Source: Candidatus Eiseniibacteriota bacterium
GTDB taxonomy: Bacteria; Eisenbacteria; RBG-16-71-46
Length of the DNA: 64,000 nucleotides
NCBI GenBank assembly: GCA_033853925.1
Contig: JAWOLC010000022.1
Location: 6,512-70,511 of the forward strand
Direction of reading: 5' to 3'
Shown here: piece after piece, positions 7,052-64,000 of the stretch
Numbering within the stretch: the first letter of the stretch is position 1
Layout of the letters: every line of letters starts with the position of its first letter
The notes under the pieces: generated by a model
The model's database searches: none
Told to the model about the DNA's origin: nothing
The model's input: the letters and a program-made list of their open reading frames with translations, nothing else
Translations under genes and position numbers: made by a program

Positions 7052-8785
7052 ATGGGCCGCGAAGCGCGATCGGGGGCGGAGCCCTCGCTCCGGGCCCCGA
7101 GGAAGAGGGCGGGTCGCCTGCGCGCCCTGGTTCTCGGCGCTGCCTTGCTGTGGGCGTGCGCGCCGGCGCCGTGCGCCGCCCGGTCGGGGGAAGAGCAACC
7201 GGCGCGCCCCGCGCCCGAGCGCGTGCGGATCCGCCCACGTCTGCGCCGGGCCGAGACCTCGGTCTCGCCGCTCGAGCGCGCTCCCATCGGCCGGATCGTC
7301 GTGCAGCCCGGCAACGTCTACGACCACGACCCCGACGCTCCGCTCGCCTCGGTGCGCCGCCTGGCCAACCGCCTGCACGTCCGCACCCGGCCCGCCACCG
7401 TGCGCAACGAGCTGCTCTTCAGCACGGGCGAGCCCTGGACCGCGCACGCCGCCGAGGAGACGGCCCGCAACCTGCGCGGGCTCGACTACCTGGTGCCCGA
7501 GCGGATCGAGGCGCGGCCCGAAGGGGACTCGGTCAGCGTGACCGTGGTGACGCGGGACCTGTGGACCACCTCGCCCGAGCTGAACGTCGAGACCGTGGGG
7601 GGGACGCGCACCGGCTCGTGGGGCCTGGCCGAGCGCAACCTGTTCGGCTTCGGCAAGTCCGTGTGCTTCCTCTACGCGCAGGGCTCGACGGCCATCTCGC
7701 GCAGCCTCACCTACGACGATCCCAACCTGAGCGGGAGCCGCGTCCGTCTCCACCTCGGCTTCTCGAGGTCGGTCGAGGGAACGGGGCGGAGCTTCGACGT
7801 CGGACGGCCCTTCTATGCCGAGGAGACGCCGCGCTCGTGGGATGTGGCCGCCCAGGCCGCGACGTCCGTGGCGCACCTCTACCAGGATGGCCGGGAGATC
7901 GCCTCCTTCGACCAGCGCCTGGAAGGCTTCCTCCTCGCGCGGGGCTGGAGGCTTCCCGGCGACAGCACCATCGTCCGGCTCACGGGCTCGTTCGAGCTGC
8001 TGGACCGCCGCTACGGGCCGAGCCGACTGGCCCCGGGCGCGCCCGCCGAATTCGCGGGAGGCGAGGAGAACGACCGGCGCCGCATGCTCGGCGCCGATCT
8101 CCTGCTCTGGCGCCCGCGCTACCTGGAGCTGGAGGAGGTGGATCGCTGGGACCGGGTCGAGGACTTCGACGTGGGGCCGTCCGTGCGCCTCAAGGCCGCC
8201 GTGGCGCCGCGGGCTCTGGGCAGCACGGTGGACGAGGGCCTCGTGCAGGCGCAGCTCGCTTGCGGGCTCGAGCGGGCTCTTGGATTCGGCTGGATGCGAG
8301 CCGGGGCGGAGAGTCGCCTGCGCCGCCGACCGCTCGATCAGTACGGCTACGTCGAAGGGCGCTGGTACCTCGTGTCGGCTCGGCACACGCTGGTCCTCGC
8401 GGGCCTCGGGCAGGCCGAGGCGCACGCGTCCCGTCCGTGGCAGCTCGTGGTCGGCGGGCTGAACGGGCTTCGGGCCTTCCCGGCGCAGGCGCTCGCCGGG
8501 AGGCGGCTGTGGCGGCTGAACGTCGAGGAGCGCTGGCTCGCCACGCCGCGGGAGTGGGATCTGCTGCGCGCGGGCACGGCCGTGTTCTACGACGCGGCTC
8601 GCGCCTGGGGACCGGGGGCCGCGGGCACGGGCTGGTTCCAGGACGCGGGCTTCGGAGTGAGGCTGGGCTTTCCCCAGGTCGGCCTGGCCCAGGTGGTGCG
8701 GGTGGATCTCGCCTGGCCGATCGAGCCCACCCTCGGCGGCCGGCGAGAGGCCGTGCTCTCCATCGGCTCCAGCCAGGCGTTCTAG
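7052..8785 (+). CDS. Omp85 (BamA/TamA-like) outer-membrane beta-barrel
   Basis: POTRA-like N-terminus (TRPATVRNELLF, ETARNLRGL), ERNLFGFGK, GLRAFP (VRGY-like) motif, C-terminal Phe (SSQAF). Confidence 0.85.
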   Translation: MGREARSGAEPSLRAPRKRAGRLRALVLGAALLWACAPAPCAARSGEEQPARPAPERVRIRPRLRRAETSVSPLERAPIGRIVVQPGNVYDHDPDAPLASVRRLANRLHVRTRPATVRNELLFSTGEPWTAHAAEETARNLRGLDYLVPERIEARPEGDSVSVTVVTRDLWTTSPELNVETVGGTRTGSWGLAERNLFGFGKSVCFLYAQGSTAISRSLTYDDPNLSGSRVRLHLGFSRSVEGTGRSFDVGRPFYAEETPRSWDVAAQAATSVAHLYQDGREIASFDQRLEGFLLARGWRLPGDSTIVRLTGSFELLDRRYGPSRLAPGAPAEFAGGEENDRRRMLGADLLLWRPRYLELEEVDRWDRVEDFDVGPSVRLKAAVAPRALGSTVDEGLVQAQLACGLERALGFGWMRAGAESRLRRRPLDQYGYVEGRWYLVSARHTLVLAGLGQAEAHASRPWQLVVGGLNGLRAFPAQALAGRRLWRLNVEERWLATPREWDLLRAGTAVFYDAARAWGPGAAGTGWFQDAGFGVRLGFPQVGLAQVVRVDLAWPIEPTLGGRREAVLSIGSSQAF

Positions 8786-8876
8786 CCCGGGCGTGGAGGC
8801 GGAGGCCGCGCGGGGGAGGGCGGTCCTTGACTCCGCTCCACGGGCCCCCGTAGCGTCGGTCGCGAGGAGGAGCGCC

Positions 8877-9359
8877 ATGAACCTGACCGCCGTGCCGCTG
8901 GAGATCCCCGCCGACTGCAACCTCGTCGCCGGGCAGTCCCACTTCATCAAGACCGTGGAGGATCTCGCCGAGATCGTCGTGACCGCCGTGCCCGGCGTGC
9001 AGTTCGGGCTGGCCTTCTGCGAGGCGTCGGGGCCCTGCCTCGTCCGCACGGAGGGCAACGAAGCCGGCCTCGTCGGCGTGGCGGTGGCCAACGCCGAGAA
9101 GGTCGGAGCCGGACACACGTTCTTCCTGCTGCTGAAGGGCGCCTTTCCCATCAACCTCCTGAACGCGATCAAGCTCTGCCCCGAGGTCTGCCAGATCTTC
9201 TGCGCCACGGCCAATCCCGTGCAGGCGCTGGTGGCCGAGACCGAGCTGGGGCGAGGCGTGGCGGGGGTCGTGGACGGCGAGGCGCCGAAGGGAGTGGAGG
9301 ACGAGGCCGCCCGGCAGTCACGGCGCGAATTCCTCCGGCGCATCGGCTACAAGCGGTGA
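8877..9359 (+). CDS. Adenosine-specific kinase family protein
   Basis: GQSHFIKTVEDL, FCEASGPCLVR, GAGH, FPINLLN, IFCATANP motifs; RBS GAGGAG. Confidence 0.92.
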   Translation: MNLTAVPLEIPADCNLVAGQSHFIKTVEDLAEIVVTAVPGVQFGLAFCEASGPCLVRTEGNEAGLVGVAVANAEKVGAGHTFFLLLKGAFPINLLNAIKLCPEVCQIFCATANPVQALVAETELGRGVAGVVDGEAPKGVEDEAARQSRREFLRRIGYKR

Positions 9360-9465
9360 GCGGACCAGCGGCAGGGACTTTCGGATACCCCGCGCCGGCT
9401 CGCCTCGGAGCTGCGGCTGGCATAGACTGCGGAAGAATCCTCGCGCGGAGCGGGGAGATTCGCGG

Positions 9466-10293
9466 GTGAGCCTGCGCTTCGGCACTGCGGGCAACCCGCT
9501 CTCGACGCCGCGCGCGGGGACCGAGCACGCCATCCGCCGAGCCCGCGAGCTGGGCCTCGAATGCCTCGAGATGGCGTGGGGCAACGGGGTGCGCATGCGC
9601 GGAGAGACGGCGGATCGGATCGCCAGAGCGCGCGCCGAGTGTGGTCTCGAGCTGACCGCTCACGCGCCCTACTACATCAACCTCTGCGGAGCCCGGGACG
9701 TCGTGGAGCGCAGCGTGGCCCGTCTGGTCGAGGCCGGAGCGCAGGCCGCGCGCTGCGGGGCGGCGAGCCTCTGCTTCCACGCGGGCTGGTACGGCGATCT
9801 GACCCCGGCGGCGGCCTGGCGCCGCGTGGCCACGCGCCTGCGGGGCGTGATGCGGGCGCTGCGCGCCCGCGGAGTGGCGATCGAGCTGCGCCCCGAGACC
9901 ACCGGCCGGATCTCCCAGGCGGGCACGCTCGAGGACGTCATCGCCTGGAGCCGGGAGATCGACGGCGTGCTGCCCTGCCTCGACTTCGCGCATCACTACG
10001 CGCGCCGACAGGGCGCGGGCAATCGCCACGAGGACTTCGTGGCCCTGCTCGAGCAGGTCGCCGCGGGCCTGGGCCGCGGGGCGCTCTCGCGGCTCCACGT
10101 CCACGCTTCCGGCATCGAGTTCGGCCGGGGCGGCGAGCGCCGCCACCTGCCGTTGACGAAGTCACGATTTCGCTGGCGGGAGCTGTTGCGCGCGCTGCGC
10201 GACGTTCACGCCTCGGGCTGGGTGTTCGCCGAGACCCCGGCCATGGAAGAGGACGCGCTGCGCATGCAGCGCTATTACCGGAGGATCCAATGA
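9466..10293 (+). CDS. Endonuclease IV-like (AP_endonuc_2) TIM-barrel protein
   Basis: RFGTAGNP, TAHAPYYINL, FHAGWY, PETTG, DFAH, HVHASGIE...GERRH, as in the archaeal-type Nfo subfamily. Confidence 0.85.
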   Translation: MSLRFGTAGNPLSTPRAGTEHAIRRARELGLECLEMAWGNGVRMRGETADRIARARAECGLELTAHAPYYINLCGARDVVERSVARLVEAGAQAARCGAASLCFHAGWYGDLTPAAAWRRVATRLRGVMRALRARGVAIELRPETTGRISQAGTLEDVIAWSREIDGVLPCLDFAHHYARRQGAGNRHEDFVALLEQVAAGLGRGALSRLHVHASGIEFGRGGERRHLPLTKSRFRWRELLRALRDVHASGWVFAETPAMEEDALRMQRYYRRIQ

Positions 10294-12097: not shown

Positions 12098-13164
12098 GCG
12101 GCGAGCCCGAGCGATCCCCACGACCTCCCGGAGAGTGGCAGTCCCGCCTGCGCCTGCACCCCACGGCGTTCATCGCTCCCGGCGCGGTGGTCGTCGGGGA
12201 GGTCGAGCTGGGGCCGCGGTCCAGCGTCTGGTTCCACACCGTGGTGCGCGGCGACGTGGCCCCCATCGAGGTGGGCGAGGACACGAACGTCCAGGACGGC
12301 ACGGTCGTGCACGTGGACGAGGGACAGCCCGCGCGGATCGGCGCCCGCGTCACGATCGGGCACCGGGCGGTCGTCCACGGCTGCCTGATCGAGGACGAGT
12401 GCCTGGTGGGCATGGGCGCCATCGTGCTCACCGGCGCGCGCATCGGCACGGGCTCCCTGGTGGCGGCCGGGGCGCTGGTGCGCGAGGGACAGGTCGTGCC
12501 CGCCGGCAGCGTGGTCCTCGGCGTGCCGGCCAAGGTGGTGGGCCCGGCGACGGACGAGCATCGGGCGCTCATCCGCGGCGGCGCCGAGCACTACGTGGCG
12601 CTCGCCCGCTCCTACCTGGAGCGGGCCTTCGCGGGGCCGCATCCGCCCGCGGCGAGCGTGGGCGTGGGCGCGAGACTTCGCGGCCCGATGAGCTTCCTGG
12701 AATGGGGGCAGCTCCTCGCCGTGCTGGCCGAGAGCCCCGATTGGGTCGCCGACCGGCTCGAGCGGAACGCCGAGCCGGCGTGGCGGGGGCGGCCGGCGCC
12801 GGAGCGGTGGTCCGCGATCGAGGTCCTGTGTCACCTGCACGACGTGGATCTGGAGGTCTGGGCCCCGCGACTCGAACGCCTGCTGACCGAGACGGCTCCC
12901 ACGCTCCCCGACGCCGACCTGTCCGGCTGGGAGACGGCACGCGGCTACGCCCAGCAGTCGCCCGCTCGCGTGCTCGAGGAATGGAGCGCGGCGCGGCGCC
13001 GACTCCTGGCGCGGCTCGCGCCGCTCGGCCGCGGAGACTGGGACCGCGTCGGATTCCATGCACGCCGCGGGCCGTATCCTCTGGCCGAGATGGTCCGCTA
13101 CTGGGGCGATCACGACCTGGGCCACCGCCGGCAGATGGCGGAAGCCCTTGGCGAGTTCGCGTGA
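12094..13164 (+). CDS. Gamma-carbonic anhydrase-like LbH domain fused to a DinB/YfiT-like domain
   Basis: N-half: VVRGD, NVQDGTVVH, IGHRAVVHG hexapeptide repeats; C-half: WSAIEVLCHLHD...HDLGH DinB His triad; single open frame. Confidence 0.85.
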   Translation: MSGEPERSPRPPGEWQSRLRLHPTAFIAPGAVVVGEVELGPRSSVWFHTVVRGDVAPIEVGEDTNVQDGTVVHVDEGQPARIGARVTIGHRAVVHGCLIEDECLVGMGAIVLTGARIGTGSLVAAGALVREGQVVPAGSVVLGVPAKVVGPATDEHRALIRGGAEHYVALARSYLERAFAGPHPPAASVGVGARLRGPMSFLEWGQLLAVLAESPDWVADRLERNAEPAWRGRPAPERWSAIEVLCHLHDVDLEVWAPRLERLLTETAPTLPDADLSGWETARGYAQQSPARVLEEWSAARRRLLARLAPLGRGDWDRVGFHARRGPYPLAEMVRYWGDHDLGHRRQMAEALGEFA

Positions 13165-13877
13165 TCCTCGTCCGCGCCCTCCCGCGCCCGGCCAGCGCCC
13201 CGCACCGGTTGCTCCGCGCGCTGGAGCGACGAGGCTGGGGCTGGGGCGTCGCGGGAGACCAGGCGACGGACGGGGATACGCTGCTCCTCGCCCCGGGACC
13301 CGGCGAGCCGGCGGCCGCGACCCTGGCCTGGCTGGCCGCGCGATCTCGGAGCGACCGGGCGCGCCTCCTCGTGCTGACCCGCCTGGGCACTCACCCCGAC
13401 GCCCGCGCTCCGGACCTCGGCGACTGCTGGAGACTGGAGGAAGCGGCGCGCGCCAGCGGGCAGCCGACGCTGACCTTGCGTCTGGCGCCGCTGCTGGGCC
13501 CGGAGAGCCCACTCTGGCTCCGGCTGCGCGCGGTGGCAGGGGGGTCGCGGTGGGGCGAGCGGCTCGTGAATCCGGTCGCGGAGGGGGACGTTCTCGAGAC
13601 CCTGGACCGCGGGCTCTCGGGCCGTGCAGAATGGGGTGGCTGGTTCGAAGTGGCGGGGCCCGAGGTCTGGAGCCTGGCGGAGCTGGCAGCGCTGGCCCGG
13701 GAGACGTGCGGCCCGCTGCCCCGCGGCGCGGGCGCCTGGGAGCCGCCGCTCGAGGAGATCGAGGAGCATCGGCTCGCCGAGGCGGGGCCGTGGCTCGCGC
13801 ACTTCCGGCTGAGCGCGCGGCCGCTGGTCGAGCAGGCGCGCGCCTGGCGGACGGCGGAGGAGGGGGGCACGGCATGA
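13161..13877 (+). CDS. Atypical SDR/NAD(P)-binding-like protein
   Basis: GTG overlaps the upstream stop; TLRLAPLLGP, NPVAEGDV, EVAGPEVWSLAEL resemble NmrA/NDUFA9-like SDRs; no clear GxxGxxG. Confidence 0.6.
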   Translation: MILVRALPRPASAPHRLLRALERRGWGWGVAGDQATDGDTLLLAPGPGEPAAATLAWLAARSRSDRARLLVLTRLGTHPDARAPDLGDCWRLEEAARASGQPTLTLRLAPLLGPESPLWLRLRAVAGGSRWGERLVNPVAEGDVLETLDRGLSGRAEWGGWFEVAGPEVWSLAELAALARETCGPLPRGAGAWEPPLEEIEEHRLAEAGPWLAHFRLSARPLVEQARAWRTAEEGGTA

Positions 13878-58693: not shown

Positions 58694-58819
58694 GCGGCAG
58701 CGGCGGACGGCCCGCGCGGGGCGCCGGCTGCGCGGCGCGGCGAGTGAAGAGGCCCGCCCTCCGTACGGCGGCGCGCGCGGGCAGACTTCGCGCCGCGCGG
58801 CGCCGAGGGCGAGGAGGAA

Positions 58820-58838
58820 TGAGCAGCGGTTTCCTCAG
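58820..58838 (+). repeat. Left att core repeat TGAGCAGCGGTTTCCTCAG
   Basis: 18/19 identical to 63321-63339; lies at the compositional boundary. Confidence 0.88.
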
Positions 58839-58908
58839 GGGACCGGACGAAAGATCAACGACATAGACGCGAAGCGAGCCAACGGACATCGCGGAATAGA
58901 GATAGCGT

Positions 58909-58940
58909 GCGGCCCAAGGACTTAGGTATCCTTGGGCCGC
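58909..58940. repeat. 12-bp perfect inverted repeat with IHF-like site (att arm)
   Basis: GCGGCCCAAGGA-cttaggta-TCCTTGGGCCGC; contains CAA-N4-TTA, the core of the IHF consensus WATCAANNNNTTR. Confidence 0.7.
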
Positions 58941-58962
58941 TTCGTGTCCATGGTCAGCGCTG

Positions 58963-59012
58963 GACGATCAGCGACGTGATTGGACGCTGAGACTGTAGCT
59001 GGTTTGTAGCTG
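58963..59012 (+). promoter_or_regulatory. Putative Xis sites (GACG, 10-bp phase) and integrase arm-type sites
   Basis: GACG at 58963/58973/58983; TGTAGCTG at 58994 and 59005. Confidence 0.65.
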
Positions 59013-59018
59013 CTCCCG

Positions 59019-60038
59019 GTGAAGGAGGGCCGTCCGGTGGGTGAGGTTGGATCGCGGACAGTGGGCGTCCTGCTGATTGTGGGTGCGTGCGTCCTCGGCG
59101 GTTGCCCAGGGAGGGCACATGCCGACTGCGCGCCAACGCCCTCAGGCACGCCGAGGTTCACTTCCGTCGAGGTCGCGCGTATCCCTGTCGGGAAGAGCCC
59201 CAACGATCTCTCGGATGAGGAAGTCGGGTGCTGCGGAGAAAACGAGGATCTGGGTTGCGCCTTTCTCGGGCCCGACGGTTCTGCATACGTCTACGACACC
59301 GGCAACGAGAATCTCAAGATCCTTCAGCCCACTGTGGGCGAGCGGTTCAAGCTGAAGGTGTTGCCGGGAATCGCCAGCCTTGAGGTAAGGCAGGGGCTAG
59401 TCTACGACGGGGCAGTCGACGAACAGGGCACGCTCTACCTTCTCGTTGACACGGGAAGACCGACTCAGGGCTATCGTCTCTTCTGGCGGACGCAAAGCGA
59501 TTCGACGTGGCAGCTGGCCGACCCTTTAGCGGTGGAGGGAGGCGTGCCTGTCGGAGGCGGACGCATTCGGGCTCGCCCGGATGGTGACGTGGTCGTTTAC
59601 TTCGCTGACGAGCGCACGAGCCAAAGTTTCATTGTAGCGAGGAATGGAAGGGTGTTGCCTTCCACGGAGCGGGAGACGTTGAGAGCTGGAATCCCTTTGC
59701 CCGGGCATAGGCTTGCGACGCTGCAGCCCGGTGGCATGGCTATTGAGGGCCAAGGGACGCCCATTCTGTTCAGGAACAGGGGGGAATACCTTGGCTGGGA
59801 CGACGCCGGGAATCACTACTTCATCGAATCCTGTCCGGGGCCGCCGTTCGTGCTCCGGCGGTATGACGAGGCCGGAAGCCTGTCAGCAAGCGTGAGGCTC
59901 CCGCAGAGGACGGATGGCTGGAAGCTCATGACGGGGAAGTTCGACTTCCAGGTGACCCGAAACGGCGACGTCCTGCAGTTCTGGTCTACACGGAAGGCAC
60001 TGCAGGTCATCCGGTGGCGCGCTGTGAGCGGCCACTGA
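59019..60038 (+). CDS. Hypothetical secreted protein (island cargo, possible beta-propeller)
   Basis: Hydrophobic N-terminus ending AHA-D; repeated DxxGxxY beta motifs; Cys-rich patch CCGENEDLGC; atypical codon usage. Confidence 0.7.
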   Translation: MKEGRPVGEVGSRTVGVLLIVGACVLGGCPGRAHADCAPTPSGTPRFTSVEVARIPVGKSPNDLSDEEVGCCGENEDLGCAFLGPDGSAYVYDTGNENLKILQPTVGERFKLKVLPGIASLEVRQGLVYDGAVDEQGTLYLLVDTGRPTQGYRLFWRTQSDSTWQLADPLAVEGGVPVGGGRIRARPDGDVVVYFADERTSQSFIVARNGRVLPSTERETLRAGIPLPGHRLATLQPGGMAIEGQGTPILFRNRGEYLGWDDAGNHYFIESCPGPPFVLRRYDEAGSLSASVRLPQRTDGWKLMTGKFDFQVTRNGDVLQFWSTRKALQVIRWRAVSGH

Positions 60039-60063
60039 CTTGGGCACTCGTGAGGCCGCTCAA

Positions 60064-60816
60064 ATGAGCAGGCGTGAAGCGCTCCGAAAGGTACTCACTG
60101 AGTTCCAAGAGGCGACGATTGCCTTCGCGACGGGTCATCAAGACGAAGTCAGCTACAAGAAGTGGGAAGGTGCCCGGAACGAGGTTATGGCGCAGCCCGA
60201 GCTCGTGGCTCGACTTCCGAAGTGGGTCGTCGCGAACCGCTGGGGAAGTCAGTTCTGGAGCTTCATCAAGAGCGAATCGAAGACCTACGACGGTCGCCGC
60301 AGGTTCGTCTGGGCCAGCCTCGGCCCTGTGTTCGAATTCATTGAACGTGGCGCGACGGAGCCGACAGCGCGGGCACTTGAACCTCTGCTGGGCAGAGTAT
60401 CTGCGGAGAGCGTCGCCGAGGCCTGGTCGAAGGCCCAAGCTCGTCGAGAGTCTGATCCAGAAGGTGTGATAACTGCGGCGCGGAGTCTCTTGGAATCTGT
60501 ATGCAAGTTCATTCTGGAAGAAATGGGCGAAGCGTTCGAAGATTCCGACGACCTGCCTCAGCTATACCGGCGAGTAGCGACCGCCATGAAGCTTAGTCCG
60601 GCGGATCATCCAGAGCAGGTGTTCAAGCAGATCCTTAGCGGGTGTGTGTCTGTGGTGGGTGGCCTGGCAGCTCTTCGGAATGCCTTTGGGGATGCGCACG
60701 GGAAGGGGAGGAGGGCTGCCAAGCCGTCGTCGCGTCACGCGGACCTTGCGCTGAATCTGGCCGGGAGCCTTGCGACATTCCTCATCGCAACCTACGAAAC
60801 GCGGAAAGGAAAGTAA
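60064..60816 (+). CDS. Abortive infection family protein (Abi_C / AbiJ-like HEPN domain)
   Basis: LPKWV...QFWSFIK...YDGRR N-domain; ITAARSLLESVCKFIL, DLPQLY, LRNAFGDAHG (Rx6H HEPN motif). Confidence 0.88.
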   Translation: MSRREALRKVLTEFQEATIAFATGHQDEVSYKKWEGARNEVMAQPELVARLPKWVVANRWGSQFWSFIKSESKTYDGRRRFVWASLGPVFEFIERGATEPTARALEPLLGRVSAESVAEAWSKAQARRESDPEGVITAARSLLESVCKFILEEMGEAFEDSDDLPQLYRRVATAMKLSPADHPEQVFKQILSGCVSVVGGLAALRNAFGDAHGKGRRAAKPSSRHADLALNLAGSLATFLIATYETRKGK

Positions 60817-60904
60817 GGCCGGATGGCCGCGAGGCCGAAGGTAGTGGTCACGCGTGGACAGGGGACGACAAGCGAGGGCGAAACGAGGAAAATCGATTTC
60901 GCCC

Positions 60905-60933
60905 TTGACTGACGCGGATGTGAGGACCATAGT
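60905..60933 (+). promoter_or_regulatory. Sigma-70-type promoter
   Basis: TTGACT-17 nt-CATAGT; the -35 abuts the inverted repeat AGGGCGAAA/TTTCGCCCT (60875-60905). Confidence 0.65.
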
Positions 60934-60939
60934 ACGCAC

Positions 60940-61087
60940 GAGTGGCGGCGCCTGAAGTACCCTGCGTTAGACGCGGTGGAGAGAGAAGGGCGCCTCAAAA
61001 CTCCAAGAGAATGGAATAGTCACCCGAGATGAGTCAGCTCCGGGAATGTGGGCAGAGTGGCCCCGTTTCCCGGGGCTTTTTGTTTTT
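60940..61087 (+). ncRNA. Candidate structured small RNA (~150 nt)
   Basis: Lies between a promoter and an intrinsic terminator with no complete ORF inside; stems GGCGCCT/GGGCGCC, CTGCGT/ACGCGG, TCCA/TGGA, CCCG/CGGG. Confidence 0.5.
61060..61087 (+). terminator. Rho-independent terminator
   Basis: GCCCCG-tttcc-CGGGGC followed by TTTTTGTTTTT. Confidence 0.85.
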
Positions 61088-61231
61088 GCGGAAGGTGGGC
61101 GGCGCGTCGCGGTCGTGGATCTGCCAGCGATTGAGGCGCGGGACCTTGGGAGGCTTCGTTCCCGATTCGGAGCCTGCAGCACGTAGCGAATCGGCGCGAG
61201 GGCGACGCAGAGGCGGTCCTGGCGTGATAGG

Positions 61232-61278
61232 GGCGGGCAGACTTCGCCTCGTTGCTTGACGCACAGAGTCTGCCCGCC
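61232..61278. repeat. 12-bp perfect inverted repeat upstream of xis-int
   Basis: GGCGGGCAGACT (61232-61243) / AGTCTGCCCGCC (61267-61278); the 23-nt spacer contains TTGACG. Confidence 0.75.
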
Positions 61279-61328
61279 ACTTGGACAGGGTGGGTCACGG
61301 GGTGGCGGACCAAAGGCCGGAGGGTGTG

Positions 61329-61571
61329 ATGGGTGGGGAGTTCGAGGAGGCGGTGCTGGGTTGGGCGCGGGCGGAGGGGGAGCAGGAGGCGCGGCGGGAG
61401 CGGTTGGGGCAGTCGCTGATGAGCGTGAAGGATGTCGCCCGATTCCTGCGGGTCAGCGAGAAGACCGTGCGACGGATGGAGGCGAGGGGAAAGCTGCGGC
61501 GTTGTGTCGGCCTGGACTACCTGGTTAGATTCCGGCCCAGCGATGTCCTGCGGCTCGCTTCGGCGAAGTGA
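61329..61571 (+). CDS. Excisionase-type helix-turn-helix protein (HTH_17)
   Basis: LMSVKDVARFLRVSEKTVRRM..RGKL...VRFRPSDV; RBS GGAGGG; directly upstream of the integrase. Confidence 0.88.
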   Translation: MGGEFEEAVLGWARAEGEQEARRERLGQSLMSVKDVARFLRVSEKTVRRMEARGKLRRCVGLDYLVRFRPSDVLRLASAK

Positions 61572-61584
61572 AAGGGGGCCGAAG

Positions 61585-62562
61585 ATGCCGAAGCGGCCGA
61601 AGGGGATGTTTCGACGCGGGCGGTCGTTCTACGTCCGCGTGTGGGAGAGCGGCGAAGACCGCTGGGTGTGCCTCGGGACGGACTACGGAAAGGCCTGTGA
61701 GACGCTCCGAGCGCTGCGCAGAGGCGAAAGGCCGGTGCAGCGTGGCTCCACGGTCAGGGACGTGGCCGAACGATGGCTCACGGTCTACGTGCCGACCGCG
61801 CGGGGCGAGAAGCAGGTGCGGATGTCGCGCACGCGGGTCAGCAAGTACTTGGCGGAGTTCATGGGGCACAAGCCGCTCGTTTCGGTGAAGCCCGACGATT
61901 TCCGCGAGTACCGGCTCTGGCTCGAGGACCAGGAGTTGAAACCGATGACGGTGGTGCATCTGCTGTCGGACGCGCGGTGCTTTTTCAACTGGTGCGCGGA
62001 TACCGGCGTGCTGGACAGGTCGCCGTTTCCGCGCCGGGTGATGCCGCGAGTCCAGGAGGTGCCACCGGACCGCCTCACGGACGAGGAGGTCGTCTCGGTG
62101 CTCTCCGTTCGCGAGCCTCATGCGTTCGTGTTGCGGCTGGCATTGGGTACGGGCCTGCGGTGGGGAGAGCTCACGCGGGCTCAGGCCTCAGACGTCGAGC
62201 ACGGGATGCTCGTGGTCAGCCAGACCAAGTCGGGTCGGGTGCGCCGGGTGCCGCTGTCGCCGGAGTTGCTGGCCGAGGTTCGGCGGAGAGTGGGCCGGCT
62301 GGTGGGCTACTCGTGGAAGTCGCCAGGGTCGTTCGCCGGCGCGGTGCGCCGGATGAGCGGCGTCCATCGGTTCCACGTTCACCAGCTGCGGCACACGTTT
62401 GCGTGCCGATGGGTCGAGCAGGGTGGAAACCTGGCAGCGCTTCAGCAGATTCTCGGGCACGCCAGCATCGTCACGACGCAGCGCTACGCGAGGCTGAGTG
62501 ACGAGGCGGTGAGACGCGAGGCCGAGAGGCTCTTGGAGATGGAGGCGGGCCGTGCTTCGTAG
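61585..62562 (+). CDS. Tyrosine recombinase/integrase
   Basis: N-terminal arm-binding-like domain (RGRSFYVRVW...RWVCLG); catalytic R (TGLRWGE), K (TKSG), HxxR (HQLRH), LGH, Y (QRYA). Confidence 0.96.
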   Translation: MPKRPKGMFRRGRSFYVRVWESGEDRWVCLGTDYGKACETLRALRRGERPVQRGSTVRDVAERWLTVYVPTARGEKQVRMSRTRVSKYLAEFMGHKPLVSVKPDDFREYRLWLEDQELKPMTVVHLLSDARCFFNWCADTGVLDRSPFPRRVMPRVQEVPPDRLTDEEVVSVLSVREPHAFVLRLALGTGLRWGELTRAQASDVEHGMLVVSQTKSGRVRRVPLSPELLAEVRRRVGRLVGYSWKSPGSFAGAVRRMSGVHRFHVHQLRHTFACRWVEQGGNLAALQQILGHASIVTTQRYARLSDEAVRREAERLLEMEAGRAS

Positions 62563-63196
62563 GCTGGACGGTCTCTGGCATTGGGGTGTGCCGCTTCTGG
62601 TGGCCTGCATCATCGCGTCGTTGGGATGCTCAGCTTCGGAAGACAAGCGATTCCGAAACGAGGTGGGGCCAGTCCTGAAGCTGTGTGCGGAGCTCAACTC
62701 CGACCTAGGAGTCGCCGCGTGGACACCGGAGGAGTTGGTGTCGGAGCAGGCGAGGACGAATGCGGAGATCGAGCGGTACGGTGCAGCGGTGAGAGCGCTG
62801 CCTCAGCCTCGGGACAAGCGGCTGAGGTACTTGGCCATCAGGCTGGGAGCGTTCAGAGTGACCGCGGCGGAGATGGTCGGAGCAAGGATCGCCACGCTGG
62901 ACGCGCTGATCAATGCGAGACTGCCCGGACTGACGCCGGGTGCTAAGCGTCTGACCGGATACTGGCTTGAGCGGCGCGGCCGGGAGCAGCGGGAGAGCGA
63001 AGCGAAGTACGGCACGGCTCTTCGGTATGTGCTCGCGGCGGAGCAAGTGGCGCTCGGGACCAGCGGACTCCGAGATGCTCTCGAAGCGTCTTACTTGGGC
63101 GGACACGAGCCGCCTGGGGTGAGTCGTGCGCAGAGAGACAGCTTGGTCGCTCAGACCGAAGGCTTGGTGCGGTCGGAGATCGCCGCGATGCGGTGA
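62552..63196 (+). CDS. Hypothetical lipoprotein (island cargo)
   Basis: GTG overlaps the int end; hydrophobic stretch plus lipobox SLGC; helical body. Confidence 0.6.
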   Translation: MLRRLDGLWHWGVPLLVACIIASLGCSASEDKRFRNEVGPVLKLCAELNSDLGVAAWTPEELVSEQARTNAEIERYGAAVRALPQPRDKRLRYLAIRLGAFRVTAAEMVGARIATLDALINARLPGLTPGAKRLTGYWLERRGREQRESEAKYGTALRYVLAAEQVALGTSGLRDALEASYLGGHEPPGVSRAQRDSLVAQTEGLVRSEIAAMR

Positions 63197-63201
63197 CGTT
63201 T

Positions 63202-63222
63202 TGTAGCAGGTGCTGTAGCAGG
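63202..63222 (+). promoter_or_regulatory. Integrase arm-type direct repeats at the right end
   Basis: TGTAGCAGG at 63202 and 63214, matching TGTAGCTG at the left end. Confidence 0.7.
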
Positions 63223-63320
63223 CGAGTTCCGCAGACCCTCAAGTAGCGAGAGAGGCCGTCCTGCGAAATCGAAGTGAGTGAGAGCGGTGCCCGGCCTCGG
63301 TGAGCGAAGCCGACAGAAGG

Positions 63321-63339
63321 TGAGCAGCGGCTTCCTCAG
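63321..63339 (+). repeat. Right/junction att core repeat TGAGCAGCGGCTTCCTCAG
   Basis: 18/19 identical to 58820-58838. Confidence 0.88.
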
Positions 63340-63603
63340 CCGTGACCGCGTGAAATCGGGGTGAGACGAGGTCGAGACGCCTGTTGGTGACGCGAGTTAT
63401 AGTTACCGTGAGCCCCACGGAGTTACGCGTCCGTGGGGCTCATGGTGTCTCAGGACTGACGGGAACGCTTCGGGACGTGAGAGGACGCTGATGCCGGTAC
63501 CAAGCCGGGACCAAGCGATGGGCTGCGGTGATTGGGCCTTCGGGAGTTGCCGATAACGAGATATGCGCTTGGGTGTACCGGAGGGCAAGGTGGGAGATTG
63601 AAG

Positions 63604-64000
63604 ATGGCGACAGCATCGAAATCGCTCGCATACGGGCTGATGGCGCTTGGCGTCGTCATGGCGTCTTTGAGCGTGCTTCCGGAAGAGAAGACGGTCAACG
63701 TTCCTCTCCGGATTCAGGCGGGTTACAGGGGCGAGGTTGAGTTCAGACCGCGCGCCCATGACGCCTACGAGATTCAGCTGGTGATCAACGACAACGGCCC
63801 GATGAAGAACGCGATTCTGAACGGTCGACCGAATGTGATCGGAGCCGCGTTAGTGGGTTCTAGACGGAGGGAGGAAGGGTCGGCGGCGTCTGCTGTGAGA
63901 ATGACTTGGTCGGCTGTGCAGGGTGGGCGAGTCATCGCGCGAGGGCAGTCGCGGGACCTCGGACTTGGATGGTTCTCGGGAAACGAGGCATTCAGGCGAC
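63604..64000 (+). CDS. Hypothetical exported protein, 3'-truncated by the window (element 2 cargo)
   Basis: ATG 63604 after GGGAG; MATASKSLAYGLMALGVVMASLSVLPEEK... open to the window end; N-terminal hydrophobic helix; absent from the ORF track because no stop falls in the window. Confidence 0.65.
   Translation, partial: MATASKSLAYGLMALGVVMASLSVLPEEKTVNVPLRIQAGYRGEVEFRPRAHDAYEIQLVINDNGPMKNAILNGRPNVIGAALVGSRRREEGSAASAVRMTWSAVQGGRVIARGQSRDLGLGWFSGNEAFRR

Follow-up and report, generated by a model that had tools for sequence, protein, structure and literature searches.

The locus described here raises the question of what kind of mobile DNA is present when two nearly identical 19-nt sequences, 4,501 nt apart, are each followed, in the same register, by a hairpin, a series of phased repeats and a pair of direct repeats. 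It is found in the genome of a Candidatus Eiseniibacteriota bacterium (assembly GCA_033853925.1; 195 contigs, 3.79 Mb, 72.5% GC), and the window, that is, the whole stretch of DNA that was analyzed, comprises 64,000 nt of this assembly (G000:C22:6512-70511), on a contig that continues for 2,008 nt past the window end. Coordinates refer to the window, except for locus L001, which includes the DNA past the window end and in which each coordinate is the window coordinate minus 56,000. The region 58820-63339, referred to as element 1 (E1), is a complete low-GC site-specific integrative element of 4.5 kb. It is most likely that E1 was inserted at the left junction of a related element or relic (element 2, E2), which starts at the second of the two 19-nt sequences. 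The attachment (att) core of this family derives from tRNA-Arg(CCT).

Two att modules in register

The ends of E1 and the beginning of E2 are built from the following features.

58820..58838, + strand: left att core (attL) of E1, TGAGCAGCGGTTTCCTCAG
58909..58940, + strand: hairpin of the E1 module, 12 bp, GC-rich; stems 58909-58920 and 58929-58940, 8-nt loop 58921-58928, CTTAGGTA; candidate for an intrinsic terminator or an insulator in the P' arm
58951..58992, + strand: 10-bp-phased GGTC/GGAC/CGAC/GGAC repeats of the E1 module, with GGACGCTGAGA at the end; possible binding array of an accessory protein (Xis)
58994..59012, + strand: P' arm-type direct repeats of E1, TGTAGCTG twice, starting at 58994 and 59005 (period 11)
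63202..63222, + strand: P arm-type direct repeats of E1, TGTAGCAGG twice, starting at 63202 and 63214 (period 12)
63262..63320, + strand: decayed promoter and 5' half of the tRNA, as carried by elements of this family; length kept, sequence degenerate
63321..63339, + strand: right core of E1, which is also the left core of E2, TGAGCAGCGGCTTCCTCAG
63410..63441, + strand: hairpin of the E2 module; stems 63410-63421 and 63430-63441, loop 63422-63429, GTTACGCG
63454..63492, + strand: phased GGAC repeats of the E2 module
63494..63515, + strand: P' arm-type repeats of E2, CCGGTACCAAG at 63494 and CCGGGACCAAG at 63505 (period 11)

The original prediction, made from the letters of the window, had placed one 19-bp core at both sites. 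Both copies are present at the predicted offset of 4,501, and they are identical at 18 of the 19 positions, the sole difference being T/C at position 11. The core positions, the hairpins at +101, the last GACG at +163 and the pairs of direct repeats agree with that prediction base for base. When searched for with at most two mismatches, the core has only these two matches in the window, and none of 100 shuffled sequences gave any match. With up to three substitutions there are four matches in the 3.79-Mb assembly, namely the two of the window, one on contig C60 and one on contig C124 (C124:416). The C60 match has three mismatches and was taken as chance; the C124 match falls within tRNA-Arg(CCT).

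The homology of the two modules extends beyond the cores. In a gap-free alignment of the sequences 3' of the cores, 82 of 153 positions are identical, when compared with a null of 41.4 +/- 5.4 (maximum 63 in 9,007 offsets, z = 7.5). The hairpin loops begin at +101 in both copies, with CAA-N4-TTA and CAC-N4-TTA being present, and the stem of the E2 hairpin can be extended to 17-18 bp. In the first copy GACG is found at 58963, 58973 and 58983; in the second copy the series consists of (G)GAC at 63454, 63464 (where it reads AAC), 63474 and 63484, and the final GACG is at +163 in both. Exactly at the first core the GC content drops from 0.78 to 0.64, and it remains at 0.60-0.70 through E1 and past the second core, and pairs of TGTAGC occur only at the two ends of E1 in the whole assembly.

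Origin of the core from tRNA-Arg(CCT)

By sequence identity, the att core of the family is the anticodon arm of tRNA-Arg(CCT). The GAGCAGCGGTTTCCT part of the core is identical, at 15 of 15 nt, to positions 22-36 of this tRNA, which is the only one of its kind in the genome (contig C124), and it runs from the end of the D-stem through the 5' strand of the anticodon stem into the loop, most of which it covers. The loop equivalent is one base off, being TTCCTCA in both E1 and E2 versus TTCCTAA in the tRNA, and for this reason E1 probably entered at the E2 junction or a pseudo-site and not at the tRNA itself. On C124 the 3' end of a paralogous integrase gene (53% identity), CTGTACCAC twice and tRNA-Arg(CCT) follow each other on the same strand. 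C124, with its integrase 3' end, arm pair and tRNA-Arg, might represent the right end of the array of the window; neither the upstream genes of the window nor the C124 genes downstream of tRNA-Arg are found near the tRNA-Arg arrays of the fetched relatives.

The layout from which the window copies would have departed is visible in other genomes. Downstream of the genes of the closest integrases elsewhere (84%, 72%, 70% and 65% identity) one finds the same arm pair, then a TTGCGN-17-NANAGT promoter and finally an intact tRNA or an exact 39-nt tRNA 5' half. In the locus with the 84% match (L025) the order is CTGTAGCAG twice, a TTGCGG-17-GATAGT promoter and an intact tRNA-Arg(CCT). In the locus with the 65% match (L026) it is xis, integrase, an exported protein, TTGTAGC twice and the exact 39-nt 5' half, directly followed by a module (hairpin, GGAC repeats and CGTAGCC-type repeats) and then by new cargo. 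It follows from the gene order of these two loci that the elements sit 5' of the tRNA and bring a promoter and nucleotides 1-39 with them. The right end of E1, from the arm repeats to the core, aligns without gaps to L025 and to another relative, L075.

Integrase and excisionase

The recombination genes of E1 are adjacent to each other.

61281..61571, + strand: excisionase-type HTH_17 protein (xis); HTH_17 4e-9, excisionase PHROGs
61585..62562, + strand: 325-aa tyrosine integrase with a predicted N-terminal arm-binding domain; Phage_integrase 1.3e-22

The catalytic residues Arg192, Lys215, His266, Arg269, His292 and Tyr301 of the integrase (R192, K215, H266, R269, H292, Y301) are invariant in a family alignment of 56 sequences. 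The AlphaFold model has a predicted local distance difference test (pLDDT) score of 90.1, and in its N-terminal part strands 8-11, 14-21 and 24-31 and helix 34-45 are modeled at a pLDDT of 83-90. The top Foldseek matches are full-length lambda Int structures (1z1b_A at 3.8e-13, then 5j0n and 1z1g), which align over 350-360 columns at a sequence identity of about 17-18%. The Arm-DNA-bind family of Pfam has no match in the E1 integrase at an E-value below 0.01. Judged from the model, the integrase is predicted to be a three-domain, heterobivalent enzyme of the lambda type with a separate arm-binding N-domain. An HTH_17 xis homolog is located directly upstream of the integrase gene in more than 40 related loci. 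This is in agreement with the earlier suggestion of a lambda-type layout with core, integration host factor (IHF), Xis and arm sites as far as the integrase fold, xis and the arm pairs are concerned; the IHF sites are not established.

In a quick tree of 44 integrases the clades track the tRNA target (five changes) and, largely, the arm word, that is, the repeated word of the arm pair (20 changes among about 15 classes). The E1 integrase clusters with those of L075 and L069 (Shimodaira-Hasegawa-like approximate likelihood ratio test, SH-aLRT, 96; all with TGTAGCA and tRNA-Arg), and tRNA-Arg is also the target of another, separate clade (17 rows), in which most members have CGTAGCC. When clades, tRNA targets and arm words are compared in this way, several integrase lineages are seen, at the level of sequence, to use one core with different arm words.

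Arm words of the same and of neighboring elements

The P' and P arm words share a core in six of six complete elements with both ends readable (E1, L075, L103, L108, L065 and the second element of L072), and the arm words of tandem neighbors differ at six of six informative junctions, at which the P arm of the left element faces the P' arm of the right one (the window, L026, L087, L114, L059 at 3835 and L067 at 3040), these being six plus six hand-picked cases read by eye. The same core with different arm sites in stacked elements, as had been proposed for the window, is thus seen in the contrast between TGTAGCTG and CCGGTACCAAG/CCGGGACCAAG and recurs at the other junctions. It is a reasonable suggestion, from these sequences, that different arm words may insulate neighbors from each other's integrase.

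A family of small elements at the 5' side of tRNA genes

A search with the module as DNA in 60 other genomes of the bacterial family gave one weak match, and the element family was therefore traced by means of the tRNA half and the integrase. Of 40 related genomes, 14 contain additional copies of the tRNA 5' half (13 of 39 without G026, which is flagged as unpublished). These copies consist of nucleotides 1 to 35-44 and are mostly 95-100% identical to the tRNA, and in the fetched arrays they are found upstream of the intact tRNA on the same strand, with up to four partial halves before the intact gene in L060 and three in L059; L027 and L072 share junction sequences and were counted once. Stacking at one site, which had been predicted from the window, is thus common in relatives. 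Fragments of the 3' part of tRNA-Arg(CCT) occur in four relatives (G012:C158, G033:C276, G038:C1 and G003:C1), which indicates that classical islands of the 3' type also use this gene.

At least 285 metagenome stretches were found, in one scan, to encode relatives of the integrase. In 43 of 80 metagenome loci that were kept, the integrase gene is closely followed by a tRNA, or an Arg 5' half, in the same orientation (16 intact Arg(CCT), 6 Arg halves, 14 Ser and 7 Cys); in two there is a tRNA-Met on the opposite strand, and in 35 there is none, many of these being on contigs that end just after the integrase gene. Among L077-L151, the integrase family is located upstream of tRNA-Ser(CGA/TGA) in 14 loci and of tRNA-Cys(GCA) in seven, each with its own fixed distance of the arm pair. 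With Arg, Ser and Cys genes co-oriented downstream of the integrase, the family uses the 5' side of several tRNAs. In the genome of the window, a 3'-end fragment of an integrase gene (59%) lies at a contig end, upstream of a co-oriented tRNA-Ser(CGA) (L017, G000:C183 14222-14644), and this genome therefore also holds a Ser-targeting member of the family.

Complete single elements, measured from the displaced half to the intact tRNA, have a size of 2.9 to 6.8 kb (L075, L095, L103, L108 and L065). Ten of their cargo proteins, when compared with Pfam, include SIR2_2, HEPN_AbiV, NHL-repeat and rolling-circle Rep proteins, and four of the ten have no match. The Rep protein is encoded by the 6.8-kb complete relative (L095 4612-5682, REP_ORF2-G2P rolling-circle replication domain), the only relative found with such a domain, and some family members may replicate after excision.

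The architecture of the att site is shared across the family. A GC-rich hairpin is present in the expected zone in 18 of 29 junction modules. Counted from the base before GAGCAGCGG, its centre is at +103.5 to +106 in 12 modules of these 18, both copies of the window included, at about +95 in three and at +84 in three; in the other 11 modules the stem is absent, weak or misplaced, several of them having suffered insertions or deletions at the junction. On the 3' side of the hairpin there are three to four GGAC-type words in 10-bp phase and then two arm repeats, whose P' words differ by element type (CCGTAGCC, GGCGACCAA, CCGGGACCA, GGCTACCAA, CGTAGCCAA and TGTAGCTG). The P-arm pair has a period of 12 bp in 43 of 47 loci, and its distance to the tRNA start is about 98-103 or 43-52 nt for Arg, 72-84 for Ser and 64-68 for Cys. 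The existence of a family of small xis-int elements that have the core in common and keep the same arm layout (spacer, hairpin, GGAC in phase and arm pair), which the original prediction had inferred from two modules, is therefore supported.

Other elements and motifs were seen at the same sites. The tRNA 5' half is broken at the same point of the anticodon loop in three loci (L061 at about 12206-13613, L072, reversed, at about 8662-10115, and, by eye only, L095 at about 742), the sequence being TTCCTTC followed by TGTGAAGCGG or TATGAAGCTG. According to Pfam, an IS110-family transposase gene adjoins the break in L061, and a look-alike open reading frame is present in L072; it would seem that the same att core is also a target of an IS110-type element. 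A second motif resembling an anticodon arm, GAGCAGCGGTCTCCTGGACCGCGTGCC, with another 7-nt loop, is located 3' of the P' arm repeats in several modules (for example L108, about 2570-2600). The same motif also precedes many copies of the tRNA or its half, at a distance of about 95 nt (L063, L061, L062 and L064), together with a promoter-like stretch, TTGATTT ... GCGCTATCTT.

The hairpin of the P' arm

In 12 modules of type A, 96.5% of the stem cells are paired; the value is 78.7% for shuffles and 36-50% after sliding of the partners, and compensatory changes are found in 7 of the 12 hairpin pairs. On the + strand the stem cells include six G-U and one A-C, a balance slightly in favor of a stem formed in RNA, on the strand that the tRNA promoter would transcribe. 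In the L075 module, from a host of lower GC, the stem is followed by TTTTCGTTTTCC, a T-rich tail. T-rich tails in relatives such as L075, together with six G-U versus one A-C, point weakly to a terminator, and a hairpin that stops transcripts from the displaced tRNA promoter or from the promoter of the neighboring element is, by a small margin of plausibility, the favored explanation of these sequences. Two observations are less easily accommodated: the att hairpins of the window have no T run and were not called by the terminator scan, and 5 of the 12 rows of the hairpin alignment are from the source genome, the shuffle control taking no account of the kinship among rows. The alternative is that the hairpin is a palindromic site for a protein. 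It had earlier been taken as an IHF site; its covarying stem is better read as a structured RNA or a terminator, and the AT-richer patches between core and hairpin have no convincing IHF consensus. The att modules have no match in Rfam.

Element 2, its paralogs and the contig end

On the right side of the second module the following gene is found.

63532..64000 in the window, to 64221 beyond it, + strand: gene of an exported 229-aa protein of E2

The gene is followed by an IS3 insertion sequence, 280 nt and the contig end. The IS3 copy (orfA HTH_Tnp_1, orfB rve) interrupts E2 at about 8290-9727 of L001, and fragments of the same IS3 are located at the ends of contigs C162 and C139, so that the assembly probably breaks at these copies. 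A further integrase, a GGKACCAA pair and a third core had been expected downstream; the 2,008 nt past the window end do not contain them. In the assembly the GGKACCA pair occurs only in the E2 module and on contig C112, where an integrase pseudogene (55-68% identity, one stop, one frameshift) and a lipoprotein gene are followed by CCGGTACCA twice and, 58 nt further on, by a degenerate core. The expected trio of integrase, GGKACCA pair and core is thus present in this genome, as a separate, decayed paralog and not downstream of E2.

Paralogs of the second module are found on C135 (91%), C138 (86%), C112 (77% and 82%) and C162 (74%). These E2-like copies, which share ...CTCAG, are at separate non-tRNA sites, being located after moaE on C135 and in intergenic positions on C138 and C112. 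The C135 copy (L013 8100-8962) is a low-GC patch of about 850 bp right after the moaE stop codon; it contains an att module, one gene for an exported protein of 189 aa and the last ~30 nt of an integrase gene. C138 and C162 contain bare or partial modules.

Raw-read assemblies and relatives were also inspected for the joints of E1. Neither the circle joint (63320-58839) nor the empty-site joint (58819-63340) is present in the Logan contigs of four soil runs of one study, which cover only parts at a depth of about 2-8 and which, at this low depth, cannot tell on the excision of E1. These contigs do contain a single back-joint from 7395 to 6296 (L001 coordinates), with 31 foreign letters in between, and a loose end at 7475, both of which are consistent with paralogs such as C135. 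The PpoB2 gene of the left flank has no counterpart in seven genomes of the same genus that were searched, its matches in other genera being at 69-73%, and an unoccupied site can therefore not be demonstrated in relatives.

Mechanism and alternative readings

Integration by this family most probably proceeds as follows. From left to right, attP consists of two arm repeats, a promoter with tRNA nucleotides 1-39, the crossover in the equivalent of the anticodon loop, a spacer of about 65 nt, the GC hairpin, four GGAC repeats in 10-bp phase and two further arm repeats. Integration swaps the 5' half of the tRNA and recreates an intact gene, and the next element can enter the same site, by which arrays grow. 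The arm repeats would be bound by the N-domain of the integrase and the GGAC array by Xis or another accessory protein, whereas the hairpin may terminate transcripts from a displaced or element-borne tRNA promoter, and different arm words may let each element excise alone. In the case of the window, an E2-like lineage would have moved to secondary sites, and E1 would then have entered the E2 junction.

A number of observations weigh against this description. The promoter of the right end of E1 (CTGCGA ... GCGGTG) and its tRNA-like stretch are degenerate, because of which E1 could not restore the tRNA if it were integrated there, and E1 may no longer be mobile. ARAGORN finds no tRNA at or near 58820-64000, and no intact tRNA or exact half flanks the array. 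The left flank at 58798-58819 was considered as a decayed displaced tRNA half and rejected, only 12 of 22 positions being identical in register; this flank has host-like GC. A second copy of the tRNA 5' half is absent from the assembly, and the Islander layout, in which the integrase gene lies between an intact tRNA and a displaced fragment, is not present at the window; it is present in relatives L075, L103, L108 and L065. The lack of an integrase, a right arm pair and a third core for E2 in the DNA past the window also counts here, as does the possibility that E2 may be a relic like that of C135 from which the integrase gene has been deleted. As concerns the arm words, those of the L026 junction differ little (TGTAGC versus CGTAGCC), and the two counts of six come from cases that were selected by hand.

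The alternative that survives best, and which is possible though less probable than the description given above, is that there is one live element and a scar. E2 would be an integrase-less relic, resembling a cis-mobilizable element (CIME), with a module and one exported-protein gene; E1 would have used its leftover att site, and there would be no self-mobile array. The C135 copy is exactly such a relic, C138 and C162 contain bare or partial modules, no integrase is found downstream of 63321 on the contig, and many cassettes in relatives are too small for an integrase or have no integrase match. Against this, module 2 keeps the hairpin, the GGAC series and both arm repeats, whereas C135 and C138 stop at about +155, and the rest of E2 may be unassembled, as the contig ends 280 nt after the IS3. 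E2 could be either a full element or a relic.

A more far-reaching interpretation, which is regarded as doubtful, is that tRNA-Arg(CCT) is an open, addressable platform at which small cassettes with different arm words (TGTAGC, CGTAGCC, GGKACCA, GCGACCAA and others) pile up and excise singly, with integrase-less cassettes being moved in trans and E1 targeting the junction of another element. If this were true, E1, with its decayed 5' half and its TTCCTCA loop, would have given up the tRNA and would be an element riding on an element.

It is highly improbable that the module is a host small RNA or regulatory target, of which E1, as the only element, carries a diverged replacement copy. The in-register homology of the two modules, the RNA-like covariation of the hairpin and the solo modules beside host genes on C135 and C138 could be understood in this way. 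However, the GC content to the right of 63339 is island-like, the arm repeats of module 2 match the right end of an integrase-bearing paralog, of 60 other genomes of the bacterial family only one gave a match to the module, which has no match in Rfam either, and in relatives it invariably forms the left end of an element, immediately following the tRNA 5' half. Finally, a chance repeat in a plain horizontally acquired patch without defined ends has a negligible probability: although 18 of 19 identities alone are weakly significant in an 8-kb high-GC stretch (about 0.15 expected by own estimate), the shuffles, the in-register homology, the GC break exactly at the first core, the arm pairs unique to the two ends and the identity of the core to part of the tRNA argue against it.

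Genes and cargo of element 1

All E1 genes between the cores are on the + strand; in addition to xis and the integrase gene, these are the following features.

59019..60038, + strand: 339-aa predicted lipoprotein; lipobox VLGGC read by eye; matches no family
60040..60816, + strand: 258-aa Abi_C / AbiJ-like HEPN protein, defence candidate; Abi_C 7e-21, AbiJ 3e-20, phrog_23253 9e-54
60905..61087, + strand: candidate small RNA; promoter TTGACT-17-CATAGT, strong T-rich terminator
62552..63196, + strand: 214-aa predicted lipoprotein; its start overlaps the stop of the integrase gene

The Abi_C match covers residues 173-249, and the AbiJ match of PADLOC covers the C-terminal part only; the N-terminal part has no match to AbiJ, and the AbiJ label is therefore meant at the level of the domain. 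The candidate small RNA, of about 150 nt between the AbiJ-like gene and xis, is flanked by its promoter, which is sigma-70-like, and its terminator, and has a fold z of -3.0. It has no match in Rfam and no copy in the fetched loci, and it may be linked to the HEPN gene or to the control of xis-int. The position of the 214-aa lipoprotein gene is conserved in relatives, and its sequence is not. Homologs of the cargo proteins of E1 and E2 were found neither in the fetched loci nor elsewhere in the genome. Scans of the E1 proteins with Pfam and PHROG gave no replication, transfer or capsid domain, in line with the proposal that E1 has no replication, conjugation or capsid genes, and the defence and surface cargo that had been proposed is recognized in the AbiJ-like HEPN protein and the lipoproteins.

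Comparison with known systems

E1 is a familiar kind of mobile element, a tRNA-derived mini-island of the lambda type that sits on a relative, in the uncommon 5' orientation. An element with 'reversed target orientation' was reportedly described by Zhao and Williams in 2002. As in lambda, there are a predicted three-domain integrase, an adjacent excisionase-type gene and arm pairs on both sides that are unrelated to the core, and the phased repeats beside one arm pair are reminiscent of the lambda Xis sites. Unlike in lambda, the core comes from a tRNA, a promoter and one half of a tRNA gene lie in the P arm, and a hairpin with a covarying stem lies in the P' arm.

Integrative and conjugative elements (ICEs) and integrative and mobilizable elements (IMEs) undergo tandem accretion with CIMEs, for example in Streptococcus thermophilus, the units having the same integrase specificity. 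The present arrays resemble these in that integrase-bearing and integrase-less units share att sites, and they differ in that tandem neighbors carry different arm words. With integrons, to which the array had originally been likened, only the row of cargo units at one site and the hairpin at each junction are shared. E1 and its complete relatives each bring an integrase and an xis gene of their own, a platform integrase, attI and Pc are all missing, and the junction has the form of a lambda-type att site, double-stranded and with arm repeats, and not of a folded, single-stranded attC. Because the core is a fragment of tRNA-Arg(CCT), the locus is to be seen as a tRNA-type island array rather than as an integron-like novelty.

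In Table 1 of the Islander study (Hudson, Lau and Williams 2015, PMC4383910), 159 of 3,919 islands are listed with a 5' fragment, and there are 125 tandems of two or more islands and 4 of three or more. As far as that source describes its islands, the present family agrees with them in the tyrosine integrase, the crossover in the anticodon loop, the restored gene, the displaced fragment that marks the far end and the shared tDNA. The differences from the islands described there are that the array of the window lacks an intact tRNA, its tRNA-derived part being limited to a 19-nt core, that the complete elements are very small (2.9-6.8 kb), and that the family is on the 5' side throughout (Arg, Ser and Cys), with at least three half copies in several relatives. 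The tycheposons of Prochlorococcus, as outlined by Hackl et al. (bioRxiv 10.1101/2020.12.28.424599), are likewise small cargo elements with tyrosine recombinases at tRNA genes. When compared with that outline, E1 has no replication module according to the domain scans, and the hosts belong to a high-GC soil lineage.

For the window itself the outcome is mainly one of annotation, namely a small island with an AbiJ-like gene and a broken neighbor. For the family, the analysis adds a well-resolved case to the small class of elements that replace the tRNA 5' half together with its promoter by their own, and it shows this family to be abundant in soil metagenomes, as judged from the number of integrase relatives (at least 285). 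The att architecture is unusually readable: the two arm pairs keep fixed distances, the hairpin covaries and the words of the GGAC array are in phase. The occurrence of several arm words on one core provides a natural set for the evolution of arm specificity and for the independent excision of tandem elements.

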